This document shows positions 1,203-50,931 of a stretch of 64,000 bases of DNA, in pieces; within the stretch, counting starts at the first letter, position 1, and every line of letters starts with the position of its first letter. The translations under genes and the position numbers were made by a program. The notes beneath the pieces were generated by a model. The model had not been told where the DNA came from, did not search any database, and saw only the letters and a program-made list of their open reading frames with translations. Source of the stretch: a virus; IMG/VR virus record IMGVR_UViG_3300009509_000001, positions 96,001 to 160,000 of that record, one strand, 5' to 3'.

Positions 1203-3119
1203 CTATTCGTACGTCGTGACGTCGGGGGCGGCCGGCGGCAGGCCCTGCTGCTTGCGGCGCTCGTTGAGTTTACGCTGCATGGCCTGCATCTTCTGGATGC
1301 TCAGCTGCTCTTCCCGTCGGTTCTCTTCGATGGCGCCGCTTACGTCCGTGTACAGGCCGGGTATGTCACTCGGCCCGAACTTCGGGTTGCTAATGGCGCC
1401 GACGAACGCCGGGTTGTTCACGAAGTCGCCCTGGAACCGCTCGCCGAGCATGCCGCCCACGCCCTTGCGGATACGCTCCGGGTCGCCGGCCGCATCGCGC
1501 TTGATCTTGGCGATGTCCCACAAAGCCTTGTTGATCTGTTCGCGGGAGAGCTGCTCGCGGAACTCCGGCTTTATCGGCAACAGGTCCAGGTTGCGCATGG
1601 TCTTCTCGAGACTCGGGTGATCGCCGTACGAGCCGGCCTTGCCCTTGCTGAGATCCAGGGACGGTGCCGGTGTCTTGTGCTTGGCATAGGCCAGGGCCGC
1701 GGCCGCTCCGCCCAGGCCGAGGCTTGCAAGCCCCCAGCCCAACCGGTTCTCGGGACTGTTCATGGCCTTGATCGCCGAGTAGGCGCTGCCGGCACCGGCC
1801 AGACCCGCGCCGATCTCGTACTTGTAATCCTTGGCGTTCTCCCACATGGCCTTGCCGGCCTTCTTCCAGTCGAAGGCGCTGGTCTTGCGCAGGTCCTTCA
1901 CGTTCTGGTCGGCCATGGCCTTGCGCTTCTTCAGGCTCTTGAGCAGCATGCGGTCGGACTCAGCCGTGTCGGGCTTGCCGGCGAACCGCTTGTTCATGGC
2001 ATGAAGCAGGTACGGCAGTGCCGCGCCGCCCAGGCCGCCAAGCGTGCTCCACAGCAGCTTGTTCTTGTCGGCCGTCAGCCAGCCGAGGCTCGATCCCAGC
2101 GTGCCGCCCACCAGGCCGGCAACCACCGGGTTGAAATTGTATTTGTCGCTCTTGGCCTGCTCGTCGCGCACCAGCTTGGCGTCCTCGAAAGCGGCCAGCT
2201 TGTCGTTGATGTCCATCTGTGCGGCAAGGGCCGCATCGGTCTGGGCACTCCTGCCGCTCTTGTCGGCTTTGCCCACCATCATCTTGTCGGCGACGTACGC
2301 CGATCCCATCGGTACGGCGCCGGCCACTGCGGTCTTGGCCGCCCGTGCCATCGGACGCTGCCGGCCCGCATAGGCCCTGGGCGCCGATCCGAGCGGTCCC
2401 TCGACGCGTTTGCCGACGGCGCTCATGGCGCTTCGTGGCGTAAGCGGGATCTCACGGCCGAGCGTCGGATGGTCCTTGATGTATTTCTTGGCCTTCTTGC
2501 CGCCGAGCAGGTACATGAGGGCGGCGCTGCTGACGCCTGCGGTGGCGCCCATCTGTGCCGTCTCCTTCTGCATGTTGATGCCGAACAGTGGATCGTCCGG
2601 GTAGTCGACCTTGCCGACCGTGGCCTTCTTGTCGCCGTAATGGGCCTGCGCCCCGACGTGCGGCTCTTTGCCGCCGAGTATCAGCTCGACGTTCCCGCCG
2701 ACGGTCTCGCCGCTCGGTTCGATCTTAACCGGGTTGTACTCTCCGACGGTGCGGGCCACGTCGCCGACCTTGCGCTTGACGCTCTCGGGTAGAACGGTGC
2801 TCAACCCTTCCTTGACGCCCTTGATGCCCCTGAGCGTGTCGACCAGTGGCGGCAACGCCGTGTCGATCACCTTGCCGGTGAAATCCTTGTCGCGTCCCGC
2901 CGCTTCGTCGATCTTCGCCTGCTCTTCCGGCGTGCGCTGGCTGCGGCCGTACATCGACAGCATGACCGCCGGTGTGCCCAGCCGCAGGGCTGTGCTGCCC
3001 ATGGCCTTGGGCGCCGCCTTCATGCGGAGAACCGCCGCCTTGCGCTTCCAGGGGTTGGTGAAGAGGGTGCCTTTGCCGGCCGCCGTCTTCTGTATCGGTT
3101 TGTCGAGCAGACGTCCCAT
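1203..3119 (-). CDS. 638-aa K/A/G-rich protein with several glycine-zipper hydrophobic hairpins and KTA motifs; putative virion/membrane-inserting protein
   Basis: N-terminus MGRLLDKPIQKTAA; hydrophobic GxxxG segments (AGLVGGTLGSSLG..LGGLGGAALPYLL; GAGLAGAG..GLASLGLGGAAAAL). Confidence 0.8.
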   Translation of the reverse strand: MGRLLDKPIQKTAAGKGTLFTNPWKRKAAVLRMKAAPKAMGSTALRLGTPAVMLSMYGRSQRTPEEQAKIDEAAGRDKDFTGKVIDTALPPLVDTLRGIKGVKEGLSTVLPESVKRKVGDVARTVGEYNPVKIEPSGETVGGNVELILGGKEPHVGAQAHYGDKKATVGKVDYPDDPLFGINMQKETAQMGATAGVSSAALMYLLGGKKAKKYIKDHPTLGREIPLTPRSAMSAVGKRVEGPLGSAPRAYAGRQRPMARAAKTAVAGAVPMGSAYVADKMMVGKADKSGRSAQTDAALAAQMDINDKLAAFEDAKLVRDEQAKSDKYNFNPVVAGLVGGTLGSSLGWLTADKNKLLWSTLGGLGGAALPYLLHAMNKRFAGKPDTAESDRMLLKSLKKRKAMADQNVKDLRKTSAFDWKKAGKAMWENAKDYKYEIGAGLAGAGSAYSAIKAMNSPENRLGWGLASLGLGGAAAALAYAKHKTPAPSLDLSKGKAGSYGDHPSLEKTMRNLDLLPIKPEFREQLSREQINKALWDIAKIKRDAAGDPERIRKGVGGMLGERFQGDFVNNPAFVGAISNPKFGPSDIPGLYTDVSGAIEENRREEQLSIQKMQAMQRKLNERRKQQGLPPAAPDVTTYE

Positions 3120-3122
3120 GGG

Positions 3123-3875
3123 TTATGCCTTCTTCTTCTCGCGTTCCTTGATGTACTTGGCGAGCAATGCCGCCAGTCCGGCACCGGTCAATGCACCGCC
3201 GGCCGCGCCGATGAGGCCGCTGCCCATGCGGTTGCCCAGCGCGTATCCGCCGATGCCGCCGGCCAGGGCGCCGGCCGCTCCTGCCTGGAGCTCCTGATTG
3301 TTCTTGATCTCTTCGAGCAGTTCCTGCCATACGCTGGTGCGCGGGGCCGCCGTGCTGTGGGTCGTGTCCTTGGGCGGGTTGTAGTCGCTTACCATCCCGG
3401 TGGGACTCAGCTTCTCGCCGACCTTCTTGCCGACCGCTGCGGTGCCCAGCGTGCTTCCGGCCAGAATGGCCTTTCCTTTCTTGGTCTTGGCCAGTTCGCT
3501 TACTTCCGGACTCTTGGTGGCTTTGCCGTAGACACTGCCGGCCTTGGTGGCCTTGGGGACCGTGCCGCCGCTCGGAGCCGTAATAGTGGAACCGGCCTGC
3601 CCCGCCTGGCGGCCATAGTTGAAGTCGCTGACGATCTCGCCGGGACGGCGGGCCGCACCCTTCAGTGCGTCGACCGGCTTCTTCGTCTTGTCGAGGAGGC
3701 CGCCGACCAGATTCCTGATCGGGGTCCGCTTCGGCGGCATGGTCGCATCCATCAATTCGCCGAGCGAAGGCTTCTTCGCCTGCTTGTGTAGCTGTGCGGT
3801 CTTGGCCATCGGTTCATTGAAGCCGAAGGCCGTACGGAGTTCGCTCATCCGCTGGGGTGATACTGCATGTGTCAT
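3123..3875 (-). CDS. 250-aa KTA-motif protein with C-terminal glycine-zipper hairpin
   Basis: SD AGGAG; MAKTAQLHKQA; C-terminal AGAAGALAGGIGGYALG..GAAGGALTGAGLAALL. Confidence 0.8.
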   Translation of the reverse strand: MTHAVSPQRMSELRTAFGFNEPMAKTAQLHKQAKKPSLGELMDATMPPKRTPIRNLVGGLLDKTKKPVDALKGAARRPGEIVSDFNYGRQAGQAGSTITAPSGGTVPKATKAGSVYGKATKSPEVSELAKTKKGKAILAGSTLGTAAVGKKVGEKLSPTGMVSDYNPPKDTTHSTAAPRTSVWQELLEEIKNNQELQAGAAGALAGGIGGYALGNRMGSGLIGAAGGALTGAGLAALLAKYIKEREKKKA

Positions 3876-3891
3876 AGTGTGCTCCTGTATA

Positions 3892-5868
3892 CTATTTAGG
3901 TGTCATGGCGTTCATCTCGTCGTACCAGCTCTGGTTGGAAGCCGCCTGTCGGGCCTTCTCGGCCTGGTTGCGCAGCCTTGCGGCCCGCACGATCTCCTGG
4001 ATGCGTTCACCGAGGCTGGTGTCGGCACTCATGCTCTCGGCCCACTTGTTGCCGGCGGTCAGCTCGCCAAGCGTGTTGACGCTCTCGACGCCGCCGCGGA
4101 GTACGTTGCCGAACACCGGCACGCCCTCGCTGAAGTTTCGAACGAACCCGGTCGCACCGCCCCTCTTGCTGGTCTGCCGAAGGATGTCGCCGATCTCCGA
4201 CGGTTTGAGGGCCTCGGCCTCGAGCTTCGCACGGGCCATAAGGTCCTTGTACTCGGCATACACAGCGTCTCGTTCGTACCCGCTCATTTCATCAAAGTTC
4301 TTGCCTTCCGCGCCCACCATGCGCTTGGCGTGATGGGTGAGCAGATGGTGCGCCCTCCCGACGTCGCGCTTGGACTTCAGGGCTGCCACCGCCTTGTAGA
4401 AATCGTTCAGCTGCACCCGCTGCTCGAGCGGGCTTCCCTTGGTCGCCAGCGCATGGCCATAGGACAGTCCGATGCGCGCCGGGTTGTAGACCTGCATGGT
4501 CGTGCCAAGCGTGCCGAGTCCCATGACCTTCAATGCGTCGTTGCGCTTCTGGTTCCACTCGTCGTCCGTCATCTCGCCGGCCTGGTACTTCTTGAAATCG
4601 TCTTCCAGCATCGCTGCGGCTTCGGGTATGGCCTCCGCCATCTGCCGGGCGTTCTGCAGCTCGACCGGCGCCTTCTGCTCCAGATTGGATACGGCGGCAT
4701 TGAGCATCTTGTCGCCCTGACGGCCACGGTCGCCCTGCGTGACAAGGTTGGCAAAGTCCTCGAGCTCGATGGTCTTCTCGCCGGTCTTGGGATCGGTGGC
4801 CAGCATCTGGTAGGATTCCACGATGTTGTCGGCGATCTCAATGGGTATAAGGAGCTTGCCGGCCAGTTTCTCGGCACCGGGGCGCATCGCCGTGGGGCCG
4901 AAGCGTGCGGCCAGGTTGACGGGCAGCCCCAGCTGTCCGGCGATGATACCGGCCCGGTTCTCGGGATCGCTGGTCATCTGCGACCATAGATTGCTGACCT
5001 TCTCCACCGGCCCGCCGGCGCTTCCGCTTATGGGAATGCCCTCGGGAGTCGTCGTATAGGTTCCGTAGTCCTTCCAGCCGTGAGTGCCTTCCTTGCCCTC
5101 GACGATGTCGGCCATGGCATTGGTGATCCGGTTCGGGTGCATCGGGCTTATCTCGCCACTGCCGACCATACTGAAAATGGATCGCTCCGCCCGCTGGATG
5201 TCCTGGGGCGTCGGGATCTTGCCGGTCTTGTACTTGTGGACCACGGCGTAGTCGGTGAGCAGCTGGCGGCGCAGTTCGGGCGGCAGGCTGACGGTGGCAC
5301 CGCTGCCGACCGTGCCCTTGGCTTCGTAGGGCGCCACCTTCATGATGTCGCGCAAGGCCCCGCTCACTTCCTGAACGTCCTCGGGCTTCATCGTTTCGAA
5401 CTTGAGGTTCTCGTAGAGCGGCGCGTCCTCCTGCTGGAGCTGCTTGACGTCGGCCTGGTACTGGGCCTCGTCCTGCTTCTGAATGATGTCGCCCCGCTTG
5501 ACCCGCCGCTGCGGCTTGCCGGTACGGGGATCGATCGGAGTCGGCGGGGCCGCAACCTGTGGCTGCTGTGGCGTCGGCGGCTGTCCTGGCGTCGGCGGCG
5601 GCTGCGGCGTCGGCGGCGGTTTCGGGGAAGCCGCGCTTGTCGGCGGCTGTTTGCCGAAGCCCTGGCTCAGCGTGTTCTTGAACCGGTCGACCATCTTCGG
5701 GTCGTCCCATGCCTGGTAGCCCAGACCGGCTGCGGCGCCGAGCAGTGTGCCAGCACCGCTTACGCGGCCACGCAACGCCCATTCACCGAGGGTACCGGCT
5801 CCTGCGCCGATGCCGCCGGCGATCAACGCCTTTACCAGGTCGTCGCCTTTAAGTCGTGGTTTCGCCAA
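3892..5868 (-). CDS. ~658-aa protein with N-terminal glycine-zipper hairpin and Pro/Gln linker
   Basis: Start re-assigned to TTG 5868, which follows GGGAGG by 5 nt; the track start at 5982 would overlap the previous gene by over 130 nt. Confidence 0.8.
   Translation of the reverse strand: MAKPRLKGDDLVKALIAGGIGAGAGTLGEWALRGRVSGAGTLLGAAAGLGYQAWDDPKMVDRFKNTLSQGFGKQPPTSAASPKPPPTPQPPPTPGQPPTPQQPQVAAPPTPIDPRTGKPQRRVKRGDIIQKQDEAQYQADVKQLQQEDAPLYENLKFETMKPEDVQEVSGALRDIMKVAPYEAKGTVGSGATVSLPPELRRQLLTDYAVVHKYKTGKIPTPQDIQRAERSIFSMVGSGEISPMHPNRITNAMADIVEGKEGTHGWKDYGTYTTTPEGIPISGSAGGPVEKVSNLWSQMTSDPENRAGIIAGQLGLPVNLAARFGPTAMRPGAEKLAGKLLIPIEIADNIVESYQMLATDPKTGEKTIELEDFANLVTQGDRGRQGDKMLNAAVSNLEQKAPVELQNARQMAEAIPEAAAMLEDDFKKYQAGEMTDDEWNQKRNDALKVMGLGTLGTTMQVYNPARIGLSYGHALATKGSPLEQRVQLNDFYKAVAALKSKRDVGRAHHLLTHHAKRMVGAEGKNFDEMSGYERDAVYAEYKDLMARAKLEAEALKPSEIGDILRQTSKRGGATGFVRNFSEGVPVFGNVLRGGVESVNTLGELTAGNKWAESMSADTSLGERIQEIVRAARLRNQAEKARQAASNQSWYDEMNAMTPK
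5561..5622 (-). repeat. Imperfect in-frame tandem repeat encoding PPTPQ/PPTPG units
   Basis: KPPPTPQPPPTPGQPPTPQQPQ; repeated GGCGTCGGCGGC on the plus strand. Confidence 0.8.
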
Positions 5869-6898
5869 CTGTTCCTCCCTTGCCGATGTTCCATTCACGG
5901 CCGTAGGTGCTGCCGAGGCCCGCACCGGCCAATGCACCGCCGCCACCGCCGAGCAGTATGCCCAGCATGTAATCGGCCGCATCGGGGTTGGTTTTCATAA
6001 GTTTGGTGATGAGCATGCCCAAGCCGGCTCCGAGGGGTACGCCGGCCGCAGCGCCGACAAGGCCCTTGCTGCCGCGGTCAACCTTCTCGTTCAAAGCCTT
6101 CAGATGTTCGCCGACTTCGCCAACGCTCTTCTTGGTGGAACCCAGGTCCTCGCGGATCTGCTGGGTGCCTTCCTGGATGTCGCCCTTGACCCACGCCTCC
6201 TTGCGCATCATCTCGATCGTGTGGTCGATCAGCTCGAACATATTTCCAGGAACTCCTGGATTTGCGGTCTTCTCGATGCTGGCGTTCGGGGTCTTGCCAC
6301 GCTTGGCGAACGGCGTGGTGCCGACGCCCTGGTCGGCGTCCATGACCTGGAAGCTGTGGGGGTTCGATCCCTCGGTCTTCGAGTTACGGATCTTCTCGGC
6401 GAGCTGGCCGCGTGCATGCTTGCGGCAGGCGGCGGCCTTGATGACCCCGGCGACCTTGTGCATGACCCGCTGCTTGACGCCGGGCTCGTACTCGGCGTTC
6501 TTGATCAGATGCTCGGCGAGTAAACCGGTGCCGGCGGTCTTCTTCAGACTCGGGTACTTGGCGTGGACCTTGGCCCGGACCTGTGCCTTCTCTTCGTCGG
6601 TGCCGTGCATGCCCACCAGGCGAAGGGCGGAGCGTGCATGCTCGATGTCGTGTATCGGGTAGTTGCCGCTCTTCTTCTTTTCCTTGGCGTTCTCAGCCTT
6701 TCCGGGGATGGCGAAATTCTTCGTGGCGATGTGGCTGCGCTGCTTGGCCTTGAGGGTCGCTGACTTCTTGTGGCCCTTCTTCTTCTGCTTGTTGGCGGTG
6801 GCGTAGAAGATCTGTTCGCCCTTCTTGTCGCCGTACTGCTTCTTCATCTGGGCCATGACCTCTTCGCCCTTGCCGTCGTAGTATTTGGATAGTGGCAT
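5849..6898 (-). CDS. 349-aa KTA-motif protein with a DUF6582-like module and C-terminal glycine zipper
   Basis: FAIPG..YPIHDIEHARSALRLV..VRAKVHAKYPSL resembles DUF6582 (from recall, needs HMM check). Motifs KKSA, KKTA, IKNA, EKTA, RKEA. Confidence 0.8.
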   Translation of the reverse strand: MPLSKYYDGKGEEVMAQMKKQYGDKKGEQIFYATANKQKKKGHKKSATLKAKQRSHIATKNFAIPGKAENAKEKKKSGNYPIHDIEHARSALRLVGMHGTDEEKAQVRAKVHAKYPSLKKTAGTGLLAEHLIKNAEYEPGVKQRVMHKVAGVIKAAACRKHARGQLAEKIRNSKTEGSNPHSFQVMDADQGVGTTPFAKRGKTPNASIEKTANPGVPGNMFELIDHTIEMMRKEAWVKGDIQEGTQQIREDLGSTKKSVGEVGEHLKALNEKVDRGSKGLVGAAAGVPLGAGLGMLITKLMKTNPDAADYMLGILLGGGGGALAGAGLGSTYGREWNIGKGGTVGETTT

Positions 6899-6909
6899 GT
6901 GTGCCCTCC

Positions 6910-7233
6910 TTAACGGGGTATGCGCCGTTGCACCAGCTCCTGCCGGGGCTTGAAGTCACGGTCCACGTAACCGCCCCGATTGTAGCTGGCTTTGCTGACG
7001 TTCATCGGCTGCTTGCTGGCCACGTTGGCTGGGTCGATCGGTGCACCCTTGATCTCGCGGCTTCCGGTCGGGCTCTGGCCACGCTTCATCCGTGCCAGGT
7101 TCTGTTGACGGAGCTTCTCGGCTGCCGCCTTCTTCGCTTGGGCCGCCCGCTGCATCTCCATCATCTGTTGCCGGGCGGCGGCGTTGCGATCGAAAGCCGT
7201 CTTGCGGATCAACGCGTCTTTGAGATGTCCCAT
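6910..7233 (-). CDS. 107-aa basic protein with MGHLKDALIRKTA leader
   Basis: SD AGGAGG; leader shared with neighbouring genes. Confidence 0.8.
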   Translation of the reverse strand: MGHLKDALIRKTAFDRNAAARQQMMEMQRAAQAKKAAAEKLRQQNLARMKRGQSPTGSREIKGAPIDPANVASKQPMNVSKASYNRGGYVDRDFKPRQELVQRRIPR

Positions 7234-7242
7234 GGTCGCCTC

Positions 7243-8517
7243 CTACTTCTTAGTGGCGTCGTACTTGTGCTGGGCCACGATGGCCTTGCGGGCACCAGGG
7301 CTCACGCGGCCTTTGAAGTTGACGTTCGGGTACTTCTTCTTGGCGGCCTTCAGGCCCATGTTCTCGGCCTTGGTCTCAGCCTGCTCGACCTTCAGGTTCT
7401 TGCGGCCGGCCGCGGCGTCCGTCTGTTCACCGACGGCGACTGCGGCCTGCTTCGTGAGCAGGGCTGCCACCAGGTCGTTGACGACTTCATGCTTGACGCT
7501 TGCGGCCTTGCTGAGGTCTGCCCGCTCGTTGGCACGGGGCCTGGCCGGCGGGAACGTGCTCGGTGTCAATGACGGGGCGCCCAGTCCCGGCTTGGGCGGA
7601 TACTTCTTGCGGATCATCTCGTAAATCTTGCGCTTTTTGCTCTCCGGGCTTTCCTGCACGGCGCTTGGCTGAGTGGCGCCCGGCATTCCCAGCGGGGCGA
7701 TGGGCTTGGGCATCGTCTGTACGCCGGCGGCGACTCCGCCTGCGTTGCCGCCCTGCCGCACGGATTCTAAAATGCCTTTGCCGATTCTGCTGAGATTTCC
7801 GGATCTGGCAGTTTTACGGATAAGTGCTTCAGTTAACAGTCCCATTGGTGTGTCTCCTTGTTGTTCTGCGGTCTTCGGCAGCTGGCGGCCTTCGCTCATC
7901 TGCTGTGCAAGTATCTTCCAGTCTTCGGGCGTCATGGTTTCGCGCCGTGCCATCCAGCGGCCGAGGGCGCTGCCCATACCGGTACCGAGTGCGGCACCGC
8001 CCAGTCCACCGGCCACTCCGCCGATTGCGGCGGCGGTACCCTTGGCGTCGTCACTGGCCTTGTTGAACAGGGCGAGCATGATCGCCGCACCCATGCCGGC
8101 GCCGGTGGCTCCGCCGACCAGACCGCCGCTTGCGCCGCCCAGTCCCTGGAGTGCAGCGGACTCGAGCCGGCTGCTGCCACGGGCGGGTCGGGCCAAACCA
8201 TGAGCGGCACCACCCACGAACGGGATGGTCTGGATCAAATCTGTCTTGTCGTCGAAGGCGGCGGCTTTCATGATCACCGGGCCACCCTTCTCGTTGGCGG
8301 CGTCAAGCGCTGCCTGAGCCTGGGACTTCAGCTTCTCGGCCTCAAGTTCCTTGGAATGCGTGTCGACGTACCACTGGGCAGTGCGCCGCACATGCTCCGG
8401 CGTATTCGGATCGTCGAGTACGGCCTGGGCCTTTTCGATCTCGGCGGCCTTGTCGACCTTGAACATATCCATGAGTCCGGCAGTCTTGCGGACGAGGGCA
8501 TTTGCGAGTAGCGGCAT
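7243..8517 (-). CDS. 424-aa KTA-motif glycine-zipper protein with internal in-frame start at 7845
   Basis: Start re-assigned to ATG 8517 (SD AGGAG; MPLLANALVRKTA). A second SD AAGGAG and ATG at 7845 give MGLLTEALIRKTA. Confidence 0.8.
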   Translation of the reverse strand: MPLLANALVRKTAGLMDMFKVDKAAEIEKAQAVLDDPNTPEHVRRTAQWYVDTHSKELEAEKLKSQAQAALDAANEKGGPVIMKAAAFDDKTDLIQTIPFVGGAAHGLARPARGSSRLESAALQGLGGASGGLVGGATGAGMGAAIMLALFNKASDDAKGTAAAIGGVAGGLGGAALGTGMGSALGRWMARRETMTPEDWKILAQQMSEGRQLPKTAEQQGDTPMGLLTEALIRKTARSGNLSRIGKGILESVRQGGNAGGVAAGVQTMPKPIAPLGMPGATQPSAVQESPESKKRKIYEMIRKKYPPKPGLGAPSLTPSTFPPARPRANERADLSKAASVKHEVVNDLVAALLTKQAAVAVGEQTDAAAGRKNLKVEQAETKAENMGLKAAKKKYPNVNFKGRVSPGARKAIVAQHKYDATKK

Positions 8518-8559
8518 ATCTGGATCTCCTGTATGATTCGGTGTTAGTCGCTTCCTGTT

Positions 8560-8588
8560 AATATACTCCACCGGTTTCGCGCACGCAA
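8560..8588 (-). promoter_or_regulatory. sigma70-type promoter TTGCGT-N17-TATATT
   Basis: In the 8518-8740 intergenic gap, about 45 nt upstream of ATG 8517. Confidence 0.6.
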
Positions 8589-8634
8589 GCAACGACCCCG
8601 GTCTGCGGATGGCACGGCACACGCCTCGTCGGGC

Positions 8635-8740: not shown

Positions 8741-11566
8741 TCATTTGCCGACCGCCCGCTTCACCATGGTCTTGATCTTGCCGGTGTTTTTCGTGACGCC
8801 CTTGGCCTTGTCGTCGTATATGGCGGTGCAATACATGTCCTTGACGCAGGTGATGGGCAGTACCTGGCCAATGTGGGCCATGCACCACTTGTCGATGTGG
8901 TAGCGGGCCTTCCCGTCGTCGCCGCTTGCCCGGGCAGTCAGGATCTTTACCTTCTTGCCGTCGGCGAGCCATGCCTTTACCCGGTCGACCATGGGCTTGA
9001 TCGGTGCGCCGATGTGGCCACGGCCCTTCCATTCGGTATATCGGGCCAGCGTGCCGTCAAGGTCCACGCCGATCCATTCCTTTGCCGGGTCGTATTTGAG
9101 GGCTTTCTTGTGCAGGTCGTATCGTTGTGCGGCCGCCCGCAGCTCTTCCTGCGGTATGCCGACGTTGTGTTCATTGAGCTTGGGCCGTACGGCGTCGGCC
9201 GGTACCCGGAACATACCGCACAGCTCGCGCAGCTTGGCCTCCAGCTGGTCGGCGTCCATCGCCGCGGTCTTCCGCAGCCGTCGACTCAATGCCAGTAAAG
9301 CGGGTGCCGCCAGTGCACCGGTCGCTCCGCCGGCCAAGGCGCCGATAAGCTTGTCGTCGGCGAGCCATGCGCCGGCCGCTCCGCCCAGGCCCAGCCCGGC
9401 CAATGCCGCAGTGCCGTAGCCGCCCGGTGCCTTGGCCTTCGGCTGTTGCGGCTGCGGTTGTGGCCGTGGCGTCTGTGTGACCTGCGGTTCGACGCCTGTT
9501 TCGGGTTCGCCGTTATCGCGCATGAGCAATGCCGTGCCGCCGGCGGTGGCCGCAGTCGCCGCAGTGGCGATCGCCGCCTTCTTGCCGGTCGACATCTTGC
9601 CGGTCGCCGGCGGGTCGGTGATTCTTGCCGTGGGCTTGGCCGGCGGTGGATCGGTGATGCGTGCCGTGGACTTGGCGAAAGGCTCCGGTGCCGGCAGGGG
9701 CTCGAACCACGACCTGTTGTGCGTCGGGTCCGCGTTCCAGTCGTCGCCGTAGCCCATGACCGTTCTTGAATTTACGTTGCGCCCCTTTCCGGTCGCTTCC
9801 TGAAACTTCAGCGCCGTATCCATGTATTCGCCGGCGGCCCGCGAAAGCTTGTCGGAGTCTACGTTGCCCCTGAGCGACGGGTCTTTGCGCAGGCGATCCT
9901 TTATCGCCATGCTGACGTCGTACGGCCCGCGGCCGGACGTGTACGTGTGTCCCGGGTGGACGCGATCGATCAGCTTTTGATGGAGCCGCTGGGCGCGCGG
10001 ACCCTCCAAGTACCGCATCGCGTCCATGTACGGCATTTCGCCGGCCTTCTCGTACATGCGCTTCAGCACGCCGAAAGCGCGGGTCGCGTCCGACTCGAAC
10101 TTGAACGCCGGCGTCTTGGCCGCAGCGGTCTTCGGCAGCAGGTTGCCGACCACCACGAGCCGGTCGCGAAGGCTCGGATTCGCCATGAGCCTGAAATGGG
10201 CGTCCGCCTGCTTCTTCAGCTGCTTGGCCTTGGCGCTGGTGGTCGCCGCCACCGGACCGCCGGCCGGCAACAGCTTCTTGATGCGCAGCGCCAGGAGCTT
10301 GCGGCCGTTGATGGTGGGCTGGCCGTTCTCGTCGGTTCCTATACTTTCAACCTTCACAGGCTTGTTCTTGAATCTGCCTACGAGAACGGTGTCGCCCATC
10401 TCTATGTCGAGCACGATCTTCGCGATCTTGCGCAGCCGCGGGTCGGCCAACCGCTGCTTCAGCCGGATCTCCCGGTCGATCGCCCTGATGTCCATGTGGT
10501 AAGTTTTTATCTCAGCCTGCTTCGCCAGGGGCTTGAGCTCTCCCTTGGTCGGGCCGTCGCTCATGGCCCATTCCTTGAATTCGGCCCACGGCAGTTCGAC
10601 CACGGCGCCGTCGCGGTCCCAGCCGTCCTCGTAGTTCTGCCGGTAGGCTTGCACCGCCTGCTGCTTCGTGACGTAGCCGATCATGCACTTGTGCTCGTCG
10701 AACTTGCCGTCGGCGTCCAGCTGGTTGATCACGTACACGCTCTCGGCGTCCCATATGGTCTCGTCGTGGGGTATGCCCGGATTGATGAAGACGTCGAGAT
10801 GATCCTTGTCGTAGCCCCTGCTGCCGCGGATGTAGCCGTAGTCGTCCCACATGGTCTGGCTCCATTCGTTACCGTCGTCGTCCACTCCGCTCCTGACGGA
10901 CTTGAACGGGTTCTCGATGCTGATGTCCAGGCCGTCGATGGTTACGTGCGCCTTCTTGTAGTTCTCGGCCTTGATCTGGGCCTCGGTCGGCTGTAGCTCC
11001 ATGTCCTGGCCCTTGGCCACCCCATGCTCGACCTCCGCGGCGGTCTTGGCCAGGCGCGGTATGAGCAGCGTACTGTAGCGGTCGGCCGGGTTGCTCCACC
11101 GGATGGCGCTGATCGGAAACTTCTGGCCGCTCACGAAATTGGCGAGCCGTGCGTACTTGGCGGGGTCCACGTCCTTCTTCAGGTAGGCGACGGTGACGTG
11201 CGGCCGGTAGGTCTTGTGCGTTTCGCCCGGCATCCTGACGCCGGCGCGCACCGCCTTGTTCAATGCATGCAGGTCCGGACTGTCGACGTCGAACTTCAGC
11301 ACCTTGTAGTCGCCCTGGTCGAAGTGACTGAGCCCGCCGACGGTACCCTGCCCCTGCAGGATTTCCTTGATCGCCTCCTTCGTGGAGCGCGGGTCGTCTT
11401 CTTCATGCCCGTAGGCAAGCGTGACGTGTGGATGCTTCTCGAGGCCGAACCCGTCCTCGTCGTACAAATCCTCCTTGGCGATGGCGCGCTGGATCATAGC
11501 GATCCGAAGCGCCACGCTCCTGGGCATGTCGATGCCCATCCAACCGTATGATTTTTCTTTAGCCAT
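8741..11566 (-). CDS. 941-aa multidomain protein: 2H phosphoesterase (T4 57B/Acb1-like) + inorganic pyrophosphatase (InPase) + small beta domain + glycine-zipper hairpin + HAD phosphatase
   Basis: HxT motifs PHVTLAYG (H47) and PHVTVAYL (H123); NYKKAH..IENP..DYGYI..DKDHLDVF..DEHKCM (InPase); IEMGDTVLVGRFKNKPVKVESIGTDENGQPTING; WIGVDLDGT..ILTAR..IYDDKA (HAD motifs). Confidence 0.9.
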   Translation of the reverse strand: MAKEKSYGWMGIDMPRSVALRIAMIQRAIAKEDLYDEDGFGLEKHPHVTLAYGHEEDDPRSTKEAIKEILQGQGTVGGLSHFDQGDYKVLKFDVDSPDLHALNKAVRAGVRMPGETHKTYRPHVTVAYLKKDVDPAKYARLANFVSGQKFPISAIRWSNPADRYSTLLIPRLAKTAAEVEHGVAKGQDMELQPTEAQIKAENYKKAHVTIDGLDISIENPFKSVRSGVDDDGNEWSQTMWDDYGYIRGSRGYDKDHLDVFINPGIPHDETIWDAESVYVINQLDADGKFDEHKCMIGYVTKQQAVQAYRQNYEDGWDRDGAVVELPWAEFKEWAMSDGPTKGELKPLAKQAEIKTYHMDIRAIDREIRLKQRLADPRLRKIAKIVLDIEMGDTVLVGRFKNKPVKVESIGTDENGQPTINGRKLLALRIKKLLPAGGPVAATTSAKAKQLKKQADAHFRLMANPSLRDRLVVVGNLLPKTAAAKTPAFKFESDATRAFGVLKRMYEKAGEMPYMDAMRYLEGPRAQRLHQKLIDRVHPGHTYTSGRGPYDVSMAIKDRLRKDPSLRGNVDSDKLSRAAGEYMDTALKFQEATGKGRNVNSRTVMGYGDDWNADPTHNRSWFEPLPAPEPFAKSTARITDPPPAKPTARITDPPATGKMSTGKKAAIATAATAATAGGTALLMRDNGEPETGVEPQVTQTPRPQPQPQQPKAKAPGGYGTAALAGLGLGGAAGAWLADDKLIGALAGGATGALAAPALLALSRRLRKTAAMDADQLEAKLRELCGMFRVPADAVRPKLNEHNVGIPQEELRAAAQRYDLHKKALKYDPAKEWIGVDLDGTLARYTEWKGRGHIGAPIKPMVDRVKAWLADGKKVKILTARASGDDGKARYHIDKWCMAHIGQVLPITCVKDMYCTAIYDDKAKGVTKNTGKIKTMVKRAVGK
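9604..9677 (-). repeat. Tandem ~36-nt in-frame duplication (KSTARITDPPPA / KPTARITDPPAT)
   Basis: Visible in both DNA and protein. Confidence 0.8.
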
Positions 11567-11572
11567 GGGTAT

Positions 11573-11601
11573 AATATAGCCCGGTCATAGCTAAAAGAAA
11601 A
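11573..11601 (-). promoter_or_regulatory. Candidate promoter (TTTTCT-N17-TATATT) for a leaderless mRNA of the 941-aa gene
   Basis: The -10 ends 6 nt before ATG 11566, and that ATG has no SD. Confidence 0.45.
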
Positions 11602-11627
11602 GGCAGGGTCCTTAAAGGAACCTGCCT
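11593..11627 (-). terminator. Intrinsic terminator
   Basis: AGGCAGGTTCCT-TTA-AGGACCCTGCCT followed by TTTCTTTT. Confidence 0.85.
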
Positions 11628-11648
11628 GGATAATCGGATGATGATGTT
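11593..11648 (-). ncRNA. Candidate ~55-nt small RNA or attenuated leader
   Basis: Promoter 11655-11683 fires directly into terminator 11593-11627; leader AACAUCAUCAUCCGAUUAUCC. Confidence 0.4.
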
Positions 11649-11654
11649 ACCGGT

Positions 11655-11683
11655 AATATACACCGGCCATCATCACCCTGCAA
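11655..11683 (-). promoter_or_regulatory. sigma70-type promoter TTGCAG-N17-TATATT
   Basis: -35 at 11678-11683, -10 at 11655-11660, inside an imperfect palindrome GATGATG..CCGGT..ACCGG..CATCATC. Confidence 0.7.
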
Positions 11684-11728
11684 CCCACATCTTGTGGTTT
11701 GCGTGCGTTTTTTCTCAATATCTTGTGG
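11682..11728. promoter_or_regulatory. Tandem NrdR-box-like operators, 31 bp apart
   Basis: CCACAAGATGTGGGTT (11682-11697) and CCACAAGATATTGAGA (11713-11728) on the minus strand match the NrdR consensus acaCwAtATaTwGtg; box 1 overlaps the -35. Confidence 0.7.
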
Positions 11729-11729
11729 T

Positions 11730-12113
11730 TTATCCGGCGAACAGATGCCGCAGACGGCTCACGAGGCCCGTGAAGTCGAAGTGCGGCCAGTTCTGATGGT
11801 TGACGATCCGCTGCATGAATTCGCCGCGCTGCTCGTCCATGAGCCTGCAGGCGATCTCGTACTTCTTGCGGCGCAATACGAACGTGCATCCGTAGATGTC
11901 CGAGTCGAAATGCTCCTCGTCGGTCTCCTCGCACAGGGCCACGCGGACCCGGTAGTGGCAGTTGACGATGTCGGTGCTCAGCCGCAGGGTGGCGACGAGT
12001 TCGCAGAACTGGTAGTCCTCGTCCTCTTCGTCCCGTTCGCACGGCGGGTTGAACTCGATGACTCCGAGCGCTCCGAACATCTGCGCCCTGGGCGCGTCGA
12101 TCAATACGTTCAT
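11730..12113 (-). CDS. Hypothetical protein (127 aa)
   Basis: SD AAGGA; ATGA overlap with upstream gene. Confidence 0.7.
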   Translation of the reverse strand: MNVLIDAPRAQMFGALGVIEFNPPCERDEEDEDYQFCELVATLRLSTDIVNCHYRVRVALCEETDEEHFDSDIYGCTFVLRRKKYEIACRLMDEQRGEFMQRIVNHQNWPHFDFTGLVSRLRHLFAG

Positions 12114-12679
12114 GATATTTCCTTGATTAGCTTTTCATACATCTTGACCACCGCCTTCGAGTGTTCGACGTTGGCCTTCCATTGGTCGCACAGGCGCTGC
12201 ATGCGTCGCCTGTGCAGGTCCAGTATCAGCTCGGGCACGAGGCTCGACACGTAAAGCGTCGGCTTCTCGACCATCCACTCGGGTGCCGGCTCGGTGAGCC
12301 AGTACTCCTGCAGGATGGGGCAGCGCCACGAACTGACGTTGCCCGCCTGCACGTAGCCCGGTTCCATGTCGATGAGCCGGTACTGGATGCGCACGCTTGG
12401 CCGGTCGTGCCGGTTGCTGTAGCCGCTGCAGAAGACCTTGACCGCCACGCCGAGCGCGCGGTCGGGCTTCTTCACATGCTCGAACATGCCGTGGTCGTCG
12501 GCCACCTGGTCGTCCAGGGACTCGACCTCGAGCGCACGGCACAGGAGCCTTGCGGTCTTGGCGCTCGGCTCCATGTGCCCGTTCTCGATGCGGCTGATGT
12601 GCTGGTACGACACGTCGGCACGCTTGGCCAGTGCGGCCTGGGTGAGGCCACGGGCCTTCCGCAGTTCGCGCAGGTTCAT
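12110..12679 (-). CDS. XRE/Cro-C1 HTH domain protein (189 aa)
   Basis: MNLRELRKARGLTQAALAKRADVSYQHISRIENG; start re-assigned to 12679. Confidence 0.88.
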   Translation of the reverse strand: MNLRELRKARGLTQAALAKRADVSYQHISRIENGHMEPSAKTARLLCRALEVESLDDQVADDHGMFEHVKKPDRALGVAVKVFCSGYSNRHDRPSVRIQYRLIDMEPGYVQAGNVSSWRCPILQEYWLTEPAPEWMVEKPTLYVSSLVPELILDLHRRRMQRLCDQWKANVEHSKAVVKMYEKLIKEIS

Positions 12680-13350
12680 CAGTACGCCTTCCCGCCGTGG
12701 CGGTGCGACCGCGTGGCGTTGTAGCGTACCTTGGCGATCATGGCGCCGACCACGTCCATCTTGTTGCCGGCACTGAAGTCCAGGATGCGGATCATGGTGT
12801 CGGCCAGCTCCTCCTCGATGCCGCTGAACTCCTGAATGTGGTCGCTCGGCTTGTTGCCCTTGCGATCCCACTCCATGGCCTCGGCGAGCTCGCTCACCAT
12901 AAGCATGAAGTTCGTGGCATTGTTGTTCGGGTTCTCCCACCAGCCGTTCGCGCGGTTGACGGCGTGCAGCTGCTGCTGGAACTTACGGAGATCCGGCAGG
13001 TCCAGGAAGTCGCTTTCGTCCTTGACGTCCCAGGGGAACGGATAGGTCTCCATGACTTCCCAGTGAAGGGCCGCAAGCCCCGTGCCGAACGACCTTACCG
13101 AATTCATCAGAAGGCAGAAGGTGCCGGTGTTCGCGTACTTGTCGTGCACGTTGATGCCGTTGATGGTCGTCTTCTCGGGATCGATGCCACGGGACTTCTG
13201 GTACTCGAACAGGTTCTGCGGCAACGCGATGAACGGCTGCTTGCCGCGCTCGCGCTTGTACAGCTCGGCGAGCGCCGAGTCGAGCGCGTGCAGAAAGCTC
13301 CTGGTGTCGTCCAGGCTCATGCCCGGAATGGCATTAAGCAGAGTGCTCAT
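12679..13350 (-). CDS. MazG-like nucleotide pyrophosphohydrolase (C-terminal) with N-terminal extension (223 aa)
   Basis: GWW..LMVSELAEAME..RK..EEELADTMIRILD..KVRYNATR..HGGKAY; start 13350 after CTGGAGAAC. Confidence 0.85.
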   Translation of the reverse strand: MSTLLNAIPGMSLDDTRSFLHALDSALAELYKRERGKQPFIALPQNLFEYQKSRGIDPEKTTINGINVHDKYANTGTFCLLMNSVRSFGTGLAALHWEVMETYPFPWDVKDESDFLDLPDLRKFQQQLHAVNRANGWWENPNNNATNFMLMVSELAEAMEWDRKGNKPSDHIQEFSGIEEELADTMIRILDFSAGNKMDVVGAMIAKVRYNATRSHRHGGKAY

Positions 13351-48700: not shown

Positions 48701-49600
48701 TCGATCGATGGAACGGAAGATCGAGGTGCTCCTCGTGCCGGTGGATTGTCGGTGGAAGCCGACAATGCTCAACCTGATGGCACGCGGTTTCGCACGTCAT
48801 GGCGCTTCGCCATGGGATGCTGTACATCTCACACAAACCCAGGGATCCCGTCGCGTTTACGAAGAAAGGGATCCCGGGCCATGACCTGGTAGGTTTCCTA
48901 CCAGGTCGATGGGCATGAATGCCCGAGGACTTTGAGGTTACAGGCGAAACGCCTGCGAGGACTGTGAGACGCGTTTCACTATCGCAGATCCGGCGGTGCC
49001 CGCCGGAGCAGCGCGGTGCACGGGGACCCTGGGAGCTGTGAAGCGCTACCTGGGTCCCCGTGCAGCCTCCTAGCCTGGAGGCCGGTTGGGACATTGGCGG
49101 CGAATCGCCGCCTTGTGCTGAAACACTTACGAAAATCGGGCCACGCCCGACGGCGGGGATGAGGCTGCCCGGGCATAAGCTTGCGTTGCCGGGCAGCCTC
49201 ATCTCTCTGACATCCGCTTGAAATTGGGCGGTAGCAGGCGAGGCGCCTGCGTGTACTGTTTCTGCAGAAACGTCGATCGCATTATAATCACGAGACGCAC
49301 GTGAGTGGGCGTGCGATCTCGTGATACGGTGGCTGCCGTCGGTCTCCTGTGAAGCGGGTGACCGACGGCAGCCATCTCCTGGAAAGCTACGTGACGTTGT
49401 CACGCTCGGCGCAGCGCCGAGTCGAGCCGATCGACCGGATGGAAAGGGCACTTGATAAATGGACAAATCTGACCGCACCGAGATGGTACCGGGTGGCCTT
49501 GACGGCGAGTCGCCGCCGCTAACTGCCCTGGGGCGATGCGCCCCTTTCGCGGTGATTACGCCGACCGGGGTTACCTGCCGGCGCACTGTCCGCTGCTACC
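45750..49600. repeat. ~3.85 kb non-coding region with dispersed palindromic repeats and long stems
   Basis: About 20 GGCG-N3-C(G/A)CC palindromes, 5 copies of TTGGCGGCGAWTCGCCGCC-like sites, and 11-15 bp perfect stems; ORFs here lack SDs and protein-like composition. Confidence 0.75.
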
Positions 49601-50212
49601 CTAGACGGGTAGTTCGGCGTCTAATTGCTTGAGGAACAGATCACGGACGACCCGCGCCTTGTTCTCAGGGATGTACGGGCTTTCATTGCCTTCGGGCGGG
49701 ACGCCGTACAGCTCGGCCAGTTCGTCGAGCTTGTACCGGTTGAGGCCGCGCATGGACTTCACCCGCTCCTGCAGATGCAGTATGCTGGTCGACTCCGACA
49801 GGCGGTCGTTCCAGTACCGGATCGTCTTGTGAAGGACGGCCGGGTCGACGAACGTGGCGTTGGTCGGCAGCAACTTCTGGTCGAGCAGCTTGTCGCGTAC
49901 GAACGTGAACGCCTGGTGGGCCACCAGACAGGTTATGCCGTGCGTCTCCATTATGGACTGCAGGGTCTCCGCGGCCATGTGGGGTTCGACGGCCAGCGAC
50001 GAGTAGACCGTGGCGGGAATGCCGTGGTACTGCTCGGTCTCCGACAGGTTGGCCCCGGCGACGAACACGCTGATGTCCGGTCCGTCGATGGGTTTGATGG
50101 CGATCATACCGACCTTTGCGTCGGGCTTGATGCCGTCGGTGGCCAGTGCTATTGCGGCGCTCGCTTCCGGGCGTACCCAGAATGGTCGAAGCGCGTCTCT
50201 AAGTGTAGTCAT
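49601..50212 (-). CDS. DnaQ/DEDD exonuclease-fold protein lacking catalytic acids (203 aa)
   Basis: IALATDG (ExoI D and E replaced by A), LVAHQAF, YKLDELAELYGV; start re-assigned to 50212. Confidence 0.6.
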   Translation of the reverse strand: MTTLRDALRPFWVRPEASAAIALATDGIKPDAKVGMIAIKPIDGPDISVFVAGANLSETEQYHGIPATVYSSLAVEPHMAAETLQSIMETHGITCLVAHQAFTFVRDKLLDQKLLPTNATFVDPAVLHKTIRYWNDRLSESTSILHLQERVKSMRGLNRYKLDELAELYGVPPEGNESPYIPENKARVVRDLFLKQLDAELPV

Positions 50213-50931
50213 TGCCTTACCTCGATGAAGTCGTCGCCGGCCAGAGCGTCCAGTGGAAGCCATTGGGCCGGCGGCAGTGTGTCTTTGTCGAACATGACCA
50301 GGCCGAGGCCGCAAACCATGTCGAACGGATACAGCCAGTGGTCGCCGTCGGCTATCGCGAACGCATTGCCCAGATTGCTGAAGTTGTCCTCCAGCGGCAA
50401 CGCGCGGCTATAGCCGTCAAGCGCCATAAGCTGCTTGGTCACCTCGCCGCGCATCCGCACGGTGAGATTCTCGGTGCTCTGCGCCCTTATGTAGAAGGCC
50501 GGATAGATCAGACTGTCCACCTCGACGGCGGTTTCGCAGCCCTGGCACAGCGTCTCGATCACGGCGTGGTCGCGCTTGTCGCCGGCCCGGATCGCATCCT
50601 TGCCGCGCTTCAGGCTTTTGATCAGGCCGGCCTTCGAGCCGTTCTCGCCGGGGCGCAGGCGCGTGGGCTCCACGAACATTCCGCGGCGCTTGCCGTTTCG
50701 TATCCGATAGAGCCCGTTTGCCGCGAAGCAGATCTTCTGATCGCCGATGCCGGACCGGATGACCGTTCCGGGCATCACCTGCACCTGATCCTTGGTTGCC
50801 ACCAGCAATCTGAGCATGCGCATGTTGACGTGGCCGGTATCCTCCCCGGTCACGTACCAATGAACGAGCGCGTGCCCGTCCCATTGTCGAAGCGTCCGTC
50901 TGGCTTGTTCAAGCCGAGCGGATCTAGTCAT
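50209..50931 (-). CDS. Hypothetical protein (240 aa)
   Basis: SD GAGGAG. Confidence 0.75.
   Translation of the reverse strand: MTRSARLEQARRTLRQWDGHALVHWYVTGEDTGHVNMRMLRLLVATKDQVQVMPGTVIRSGIGDQKICFAANGLYRIRNGKRRGMFVEPTRLRPGENGSKAGLIKSLKRGKDAIRAGDKRDHAVIETLCQGCETAVEVDSLIYPAFYIRAQSTENLTVRMRGEVTKQLMALDGYSRALPLEDNFSNLGNAFAIADGDHWLYPFDMVCGLGLVMFDKDTLPPAQWLPLDALAGDDFIEVRQ

Follow-up and report, generated by a model that had tools for sequence, protein, structure and literature searches.

What kind of protein is encoded by a 941-codon open reading frame (ORF) of an uncultured large phage, and what might it do at infection? The ORF, P0001, lies on the minus strand at positions 8741-11566 of the window, by which we mean the whole 64,000-nucleotide stretch analysed (positions 96,001 to 160,000 of IMG/VR virus record IMGVR_UViG_3300009509_000001). 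The complete record is 194,576 bp long, has direct terminal repeats and a GC content of about 60%, and carries nearly every gene on the minus strand; it represents a large myovirus of a clade that carries RNA polymerase in the virion. An original prediction had read P0001 as a multi-enzyme polyprotein, and the 2H, InPase and HAD modules are indeed present in one chain with intact catalytic residues. We are highly confident that P0001 is a new example of the already proposed class of phage polyvalent proteins. Judging from its sequence, it is probably also packaged and cut at eight copies of a short tag, [LIVMFY]-x-K-x-A, that separates its modules. The features of the ORF, in order of translation, are as follows.

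8741..11566 (-): P0001 ORF, 941 codons, uninterrupted; predicted polyvalent protein
11057..11563 (-): 2H phosphoesterase domain, residues 2-170, by Pfam 2_5_RNA_ligase2 and model
11039..11053 (-): tag LAKTA (K174), after the 2H domain; K invariant in a 7-sequence alignment
10547..10999 (-): InPase domain, residues 190-340, by Pfam PF18823
10514..10528 (-): tag LAKQA (K349), after InPase
10421..10435 (-): tag LRKIA (K380), before the beta domain; K380 and A382 invariant
10271..10417 (-): small beta domain, residues 384-432 (GRFKNK...NGQPTINGRK), by homologue conservation
after residue 432 (-): tail rich in Ala/Ser/Thr, between the beta domain and tag K452
10205..10219 (-): tag LKKQA (K452), after the beta domain and tail
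10124..10138 (-): tag LPKTA (K479)
9647..10123 (-): orphan region, residues 482-640
9281..9589 (-): Pro/Gln-rich linker with Ala/Gly-rich hydrophobic glycine-zipper helices, residues 662-682 and 715-761, by hydropathy peaks
9263..9277 (-): tag LRKTA (K766)
9101..9115 (-): tag LHKKA (K820), before HAD; in the HAD model it falls in the N-terminal flank, where pLDDT is low
8771..9091 (-): capless mini-HAD phosphatase domain, residues 826-932, by family motifs and model
8753..8767 (-): tag MVKRA (K936), 5 residues from the C-terminus

Examined domain by domain, the 2H, InPase, beta and HAD modules were located where the prediction had placed them; Pfam supports 2H and InPase, and the AlphaFold2 models are confident for 2H and HAD. 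The deposited gene call (P0002) begins at M10, but M1 is the likelier start because homologues conserve the residues ahead of M10 (KSYGW). A look-up of sequencing runs found the gene in marine-sediment metagenomes and listed no RNA run carrying it. None of 50,697 phage records matched the gene in megablast, and tblastn with P0001 returned single-domain matches only, chiefly to InPase.

The N-terminal 2H domain, predicted from two HxT motifs, matches Pfam 2_5_RNA_ligase2 at residues 43-152 (E 2.4e-12), and both HxT pairs, H47-T49 and H123-T125, are invariant in the 2H family alignment. The AlphaFold2 model has a pLDDT of 93.8. Every Foldseek and VIA structural match of the model is a 2H enzyme, the top Foldseek match being a penguinpox enzyme; Foldseek E-values and TM-scores are unable to tell 2H subfamilies apart. 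The family comprises 3,557 relatives (phmmer, 1.84 billion representatives), many of them stand-alone proteins of about 180 residues and many others embedded in proteins of 2,000-5,000 residues.

Which 2H subfamily the domain belongs to is answered differently by sequence and by structure. A profile built from 30 family members (A3) matched PDB entries 9Q2G/9Q2Y best (1.5e-8), followed by FBB1 Acb1 7T26 (4e-6) and archaeal LigT (3.5e-5). The 9Q2G entry is the 2H enzyme PDE-9 of Burkholderia phage BCSR5, which shares a structural group with T4 Acb1 and breaks down 3'3'-cGAMP via a GpA>p intermediate (bioRxiv 10.1101/2025.08.21.671373). In hhalign, A3 matched T4 Acb1 and E. coli ThpR alike (82% vs 81% probability). 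P0001 missed the Pfam Acb1 (PF23474) gathering threshold of 27 bits, both as a whole (20.2) and with the 2H domain alone (25.2), while 28 of the 30 family members matched Acb1 at E < 0.01. It also scored under the cut-off of Pfam LigT_PEase and missed the NCBIfam ThpR equivalog TIGR02258 by a wide margin (27.3 vs 65.7 bits). Three-dimensional superposition was better on LigT than on Acb1-type enzymes. The domain is thus nearest to LigT-type enzymes by structure comparison but not by sequence profile, where PDE-9 ranks ahead, and it falls short of the curated cut-offs of both families; the predicted 'Acb1-like' assignment is only partly supported. Because profile, structure and family cut-offs disagree, we predict a distinct 2H clade whose subfamily and substrate lie beyond computation.

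The comparison with characterised enzymes points the same two ways. Like Acb1 and PDE-9, the P0001 domain has the 2H fold and two HxT motifs (H47/H123 here, H50/H123 in PDE-9); unlike them (PMC9117128; PDB 7T26, 9Q2G), it is LigT-sized, at about 170 residues, and sits within a 941-residue chain. From LigT and ThpR (PDB 5LDM, 1IUH, 5H7E) it differs in an identity of only 13-17% and in its setting, a phage genome without an RNA ligase partner. No RNA ligase (PF09414), RtcB (PF01139) or CCA-adding enzyme was found in the complete 194.6-kb record, in agreement with the observation that polyvalent-type 2H domains are never seen together with RNA ligases (Iyer et al. 2017, PMC5512222).

The InPase domain had been predicted at about residues 190-340. 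Pfam PF18823 matches residues 195-334 with an E-value of 4.5e-49 (166 bits against a cut-off of 26.8) and covers profile positions 1-134 of 135. Residues E218, R225, Y243, D253, D255, D258, D290, E291 and K293 are conserved among 42 sequences, and the predicted acidic metal ligands (E218, D253, D255, D258, D290 and E291) are intact.

At the C-terminus, the HAD domain expected from its DLDGT motif was confirmed as a Rossmann-like mini-HAD (AlphaFold2 pLDDT 87). It carries DLDGT at 835-839 (D835, D837, T839), T877, K909 and D918-D919, and these motifs I-IV (DxDxT, T, K, DD) are invariant in a 30-sequence family alignment (A2). Foldseek returned capless HADs at a probability of 0.99-1.0 but with E-values of 6e-3 to 8e-2, matches that are weak and consistent with one another; the nearest folds are phage HY126 AfhF, BT_0820, the T4 Pnkp 3'-phosphatase, GmhB and 1XPJ. 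With the T4 Pnkp phosphatase, GmhB and AfhF (PDB 5UJ0, 3L8H, 9IQW) the domain shares a minimal Rossmann-like core, the DxDxT/T/K/DD motifs and the lack of a cap. Unlike them, it is a member of a large family without a name, whose more than 525 homologues are mostly stand-alone proteins of about 110 residues, and no Pfam family matches it. One member of this family is chromosomal, in Paraburkholderia nemoris.

The small beta domain, foreseen at about residues 385-432, proved to be better conserved than the enzymes beside it, 80-93% identical among homologues vs 50-63% for the enzyme domains. It occurs on 80 viral contigs, either stand-alone (about 60 residues) or within proteins of up to about 1,600 residues. 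A structure look-up in the Atlas showed it fused to CTP_transf_like, Zeta-toxin-type kinase and PolyA_pol enzymes, and its partners in large multi-enzyme proteins also include 2H, InPase and HAD. There is no Pfam match, and a PDB profile search gave chance-level matches only, including L24/KOW at E of about 1.4. The beta domain is a widespread virus-only family without a Pfam model (loci L006-L078). Between it and the mini-HAD lie two further segments. For orphan region 482-640, BLAST returned only the query itself, PHROGs gave no match and the Atlas no usable match (480-640). The linker that follows does contain the predicted glycine zippers, in its two hydrophobic helices, and a tandem peptide, K[S/P]TARITDPP, is present twice in its Pro-rich part (residues 631-654; window about 9605-9676, minus strand).

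P0001 joins several unrelated effector domains in one phage polypeptide, as do the polyvalent proteins defined by Iyer et al. 2017, of which 2H and InPase are hallmark domains, listed there as phage-specific; such proteins were predicted to be packaged and injected, with 2H and InPase degrading defence-related nucleotides or clearing pyrophosphate (PMC5512222). Fusions of 2H enzymes are likewise on record, since among 75 phage 2H enzymes 13 carry a fusion to another domain, HAD being one such partner (Doherty et al. 2025, bioRxiv 10.1101/2025.08.21.671373). Across database proteins, the 2H, InPase, beta and mini-HAD modules turn up joined in nearly any order; one fusion joins portal, 2H and HAD (P0048), and InPase and 2H are elsewhere fused to the portal or annotated as minor or internal head proteins. 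The architecture had been described as unrecognised. This does not hold for its parts, 2H/InPase polyvalent proteins and 2H-HAD fusions being known already, but in our database search the combination of all four modules occurs only in this phage. P0001 also lacks an embedded peptidase (Pfam, PHROGs, NCBIfam), which is typical of polyvalent proteins though not universal among them, and has its modules split by a tag shared with head proteins; its beta domain and mini-HAD match no Pfam family. The features that would be new relative to the literature consulted are a tag code in place of an embedded peptidase and the two unnamed families.

The tag itself is where the original Lys-Thr-Ala and Lys-Gln-Ala sites led. 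Those at K174, K349, K452, K479 and K766 were recovered, and the wider motif adds K380, K820 and K936. Eight copies compare with 2.5 expected from shuffles of P0001 (p = 0.004); for the strict form, K[TQ]A with an upstream hydrophobic residue, the count is 6 vs 0.53. All eight lie between modules or at domain ends and none within a folded core, K174, K820 and K936 being located in low-confidence flanks of the 2H and HAD models. The arrangement extends to homologues. In 13 close homologues a tag follows 2-10 residues past the 2H domain, P0005 and P0006 also have tags directly after HAD, and close homologues have InPase, the beta domain and HAD bracketed by tags whatever the domain order. Distant polyvalent proteins of other phages lack them.

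The same tag marks the head proteins of this phage. In most regions of the genome it occurs at background (observed/expected 0.85-1.12), with enrichment confined to the head module (45-69 kb, 2.7-fold) and the 97-107.6 kb cluster that contains P0001 (2.4-fold). The highest counts, eight tags each, belong to the portal, scaffold-like and protease-like proteins, and the RNA polymerase gene carries tags as well. The major capsid protein, recognised through PHROGs, has a single tag at residue 26, and the aligned position keeps a tag in five relatives (50-83% identity) and in Salmonella phage Arash (25%). In each relative, head proteins encoded upstream of the capsid gene have 5-10 tags and tail proteins 0-1. 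In Arash (L087, OQ632216.1 141696-160592), gp220, gp222, gp223 and gp225 have 6-9 tags and the capsid tag is at residue 27; we found no P0001 homologue there. In Arash particles no protein is more abundant than the RNA polymerase subunits, according to a study that did not analyse cleavage (PMC10585845). Being cultured, with a virion RNA polymerase and tagged head proteins, Arash is a practical model for the tag code. The strongest tag outlier of this genome lies outside the window, a 344-residue ORF (G000:C1:186019-187053, plus strand) with 7 tags vs 0.65 expected; it is encoded on the opposite strand to the head module, at a long distance from it, and may be another head cargo or scaffold-like protein.

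Three further features, two flanking P0001 and one in the head module, bear on how the tag is to be read.

1203..8622 (-): downstream cluster of glycine-zipper proteins
11567..11729 (-): conserved upstream region, also at L086:2440-2612 and L085:9770-10000
genome 49268-50710: candidate head protease gene

P0001 is outside the head module yet beside proteins that bear leaders with the head tag. Four downstream ORFs (7243-8622, 6910-7233, 3123-3875 and 1203-3119) start with N-terminal leaders ending in the tag, of the types MGHLKDALIRKTA and MGRLLDKPIQKTA, and their counterparts in relatives L085 and L086 have homologous leaders. ORF 3892-5982 lacks a leader and bears a single internal tag. The 459-residue ORF 7243-8622 (minus strand) has two copies of the leader, MPLLANALVRKTAG starting at residue 36 and MGLLTEALIRKTAR at residue 259; residue 36 is probably the true start of the ORF, which looks like two leader-bearing modules in one chain.

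Several of these features have counterparts in well-studied phages. In T4 internal proteins processed by gp21 and in phiKZ/SPN3US ejection proteins (PMC5694885, PMC10052503), a short motif is likewise common to the capsid propeptide, scaffold-like proteins and cargo, and N-terminal leaders, about 10-14 residues long, finish with it, as they do here on the neighbours of P0001. The motif differs, L/I-x-E or A-x-E in T4 and phiKZ vs a sequence-deduced [LIVMFY]-x-K-x-A here, and so does its placement, the P0001 tags being internal and dividing a multi-enzyme chain. We found no published description of a [LIVMFY]-x-K-x-A tag code.

Because the tags fall at module borders, are enriched in head proteins and recur at the same N-terminal spot of the capsid protein, packaging of P0001 and its cutting by a head protease are well supported as an inference. 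The idea that the Lys-x-Ala sites serve as processing or targeting tags gains from the conservation of the borders, the sharing with head proteins and the tag-ending leaders of the neighbours. Other observations weigh against this reading. P0001 has no N-terminal leader of its neighbours' kind; its gene lies about 40 kb from the head module; Ala/Lys-rich linkers could lift the tag count somewhat through composition alone; and no prohead protease was recognised, the candidate at 49268-50710 having a single match, to phrog_2774 (function not known, E 5e-5), and none from Pfam, PDB or NCBIfam. Scanned against PHROGs, Pfam and NCBIfam, the neighbouring genes and the head proteins yielded almost nothing. 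A further observation is the upstream region, where a sigma70-like promoter is overlapped by one palindromic box or two (AACCACAAGAT[A/G]TGG); operator-like palindromes at such a site suit regulated or early expression.

Past the promoter, about 55-60 nt with a conserved ATCATC[A/T]TCC end in a GC hairpin and T-run, and a second -10-like box lies 6-7 nt before the P0001 ATG, for which the window shows no Shine-Dalgarno sequence. These features hint at regulated, possibly leaderless expression of P0001; the upstream element could be a small RNA or an attenuator plus operator, with a leaderless mRNA. Rfam recognised no family in this region, giving a single chance miRNA match. A TATATTAC-like upstream box, which may resemble a phiKZ early promoter, was considered as a general promoter and ruled out, there being only four copies on this strand of the genome. 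A gene for a helix-turn-helix (HTH) regulator (12110-12690, minus strand) adjoins P0001 upstream, and a gene with a MazG-like pyrophosphatase domain (12685-12993, minus strand) is two genes upstream, with MazG also upstream in L085.

If the packaging reading is correct, P0001 would be synthesised as a single chain and would enter the prohead alongside the leader-bearing glycine-zipper proteins encoded next to it; there the head-maturation protease would cut P0001 at the eight tags. The predicted pieces are 2H (about 19 kDa), InPase (about 20 kDa), mini-HAD (about 13 kDa), a basic 72-residue beta-domain piece, a hydrophobic 287-residue piece and three short spacer peptides, which would enter the cell along with the DNA. 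At the level of sequence and model, the three enzymes retain their catalytic residues. Given a cyclic or 2',3'-cyclic-phosphate nucleotide as substrate, the 2H enzyme could then open its phosphodiester, the Pnkp/GmhB-like HAD strip the resulting terminal phosphate, and InPase remove pyrophosphate or a nucleotide polyphosphate. That this 2H clade is repeatedly paired with the mini-HAD suggests such a two-step degradation of a phosphodiester substrate. We give even chances to class membership combined with packaging and processing, the substrate being left open. Because the nearest characterised profile relative is the cGAMP-degrading PDE-9, a cyclic-oligonucleotide immune signal is the likeliest substrate, although an immune signal of any kind is a tentative proposal that we hold with less than even confidence.

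The same delivery could serve RNA instead. The 2H and HAD enzymes might heal the 2',3'-cyclic-phosphate ends left by host anticodon nucleases or other metal-independent nucleases, 2H opening the end and the Pnkp-like HAD removing the phosphate, or 2H might be a Usb1-like RNase acting on host RNA. We regard this as unlikely, given a phage genome without RNA ligase, RtcB or CCA-adding enzyme, a score far from the ThpR equivalog cut-off (27 vs 65.7 bits) and a sequence profile that favours the Acb1-type PDE-9. Less likely still is that P0001 is no virion cargo at all and acts after infection, anchored in the membrane by its glycine zippers, as one chain or cut by another protease, the tags being flexible linkers that happen to resemble the head tag. 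The hydrophobic helices at residues 662-682 and 715-761 would suit such an anchor, as the missing leader and the position outside the head module would suit a non-packaged protein, and the palindrome-overlapped sigma70-like promoter, terminator-like hairpin and adjacent HTH gene, a layout kept in L085 and L086, would suit expression in the infected cell. Chance linkers do not explain, however, why tags stand at every module border in homologues of differing domain order, why the capsid, portal and scaffold-like proteins carry the same tag, why neighbouring genes have leaders that end in it, or why InPase and 2H are elsewhere fused to portal and minor head proteins.

An improbable third alternative keeps packaging but makes P0001 a housekeeping set for the injected RNA polymerase: InPase would clear pyrophosphate and HAD and 2H trim nucleotides, speeding early transcription and replication with no immune signal involved. 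Pyrophosphate clearing is indeed the alternative InPase role of Iyer et al. 2017 (PMC5512222), the clade packages RNA polymerase (PMC10585845), the polymerase gene is itself tagged, and the MazG-like gene, also found in L085, lies close by. This alternative leaves the 2H domain and its recurrent mini-HAD pairing unexplained. Host pyrophosphatase, moreover, is abundant. Returning to a packaged protein cut at its tags, its broadest form would make the tag a head-protease cleavage or targeting code of the clade of RNA-polymerase-packaging large phages, Arash included, that loads cut-to-size cargo without an embedded peptidase; P0001 would then deliver an Acb1-like phosphodiesterase and a matching 3'-phosphatase that destroy cyclic-oligonucleotide alarms from the first moment of infection. 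In this full extent we consider the proposal unlikely to hold.

Should the tag prove to be a cleavage code, sequence alone would suffice to read which enzymes this little-known clade of large phages packages, polyvalent proteins would have a route to processing that needs no built-in peptidase, and the code could be tested in culturable Arash. We flag the beta domain and mini-HAD for study, both being families that are widespread in viruses and lack a Pfam model. The 2H/mini-HAD pair could be a new tool of the anti-CBASS or anti-CRISPR-type-III kind, or one for RNA ends.

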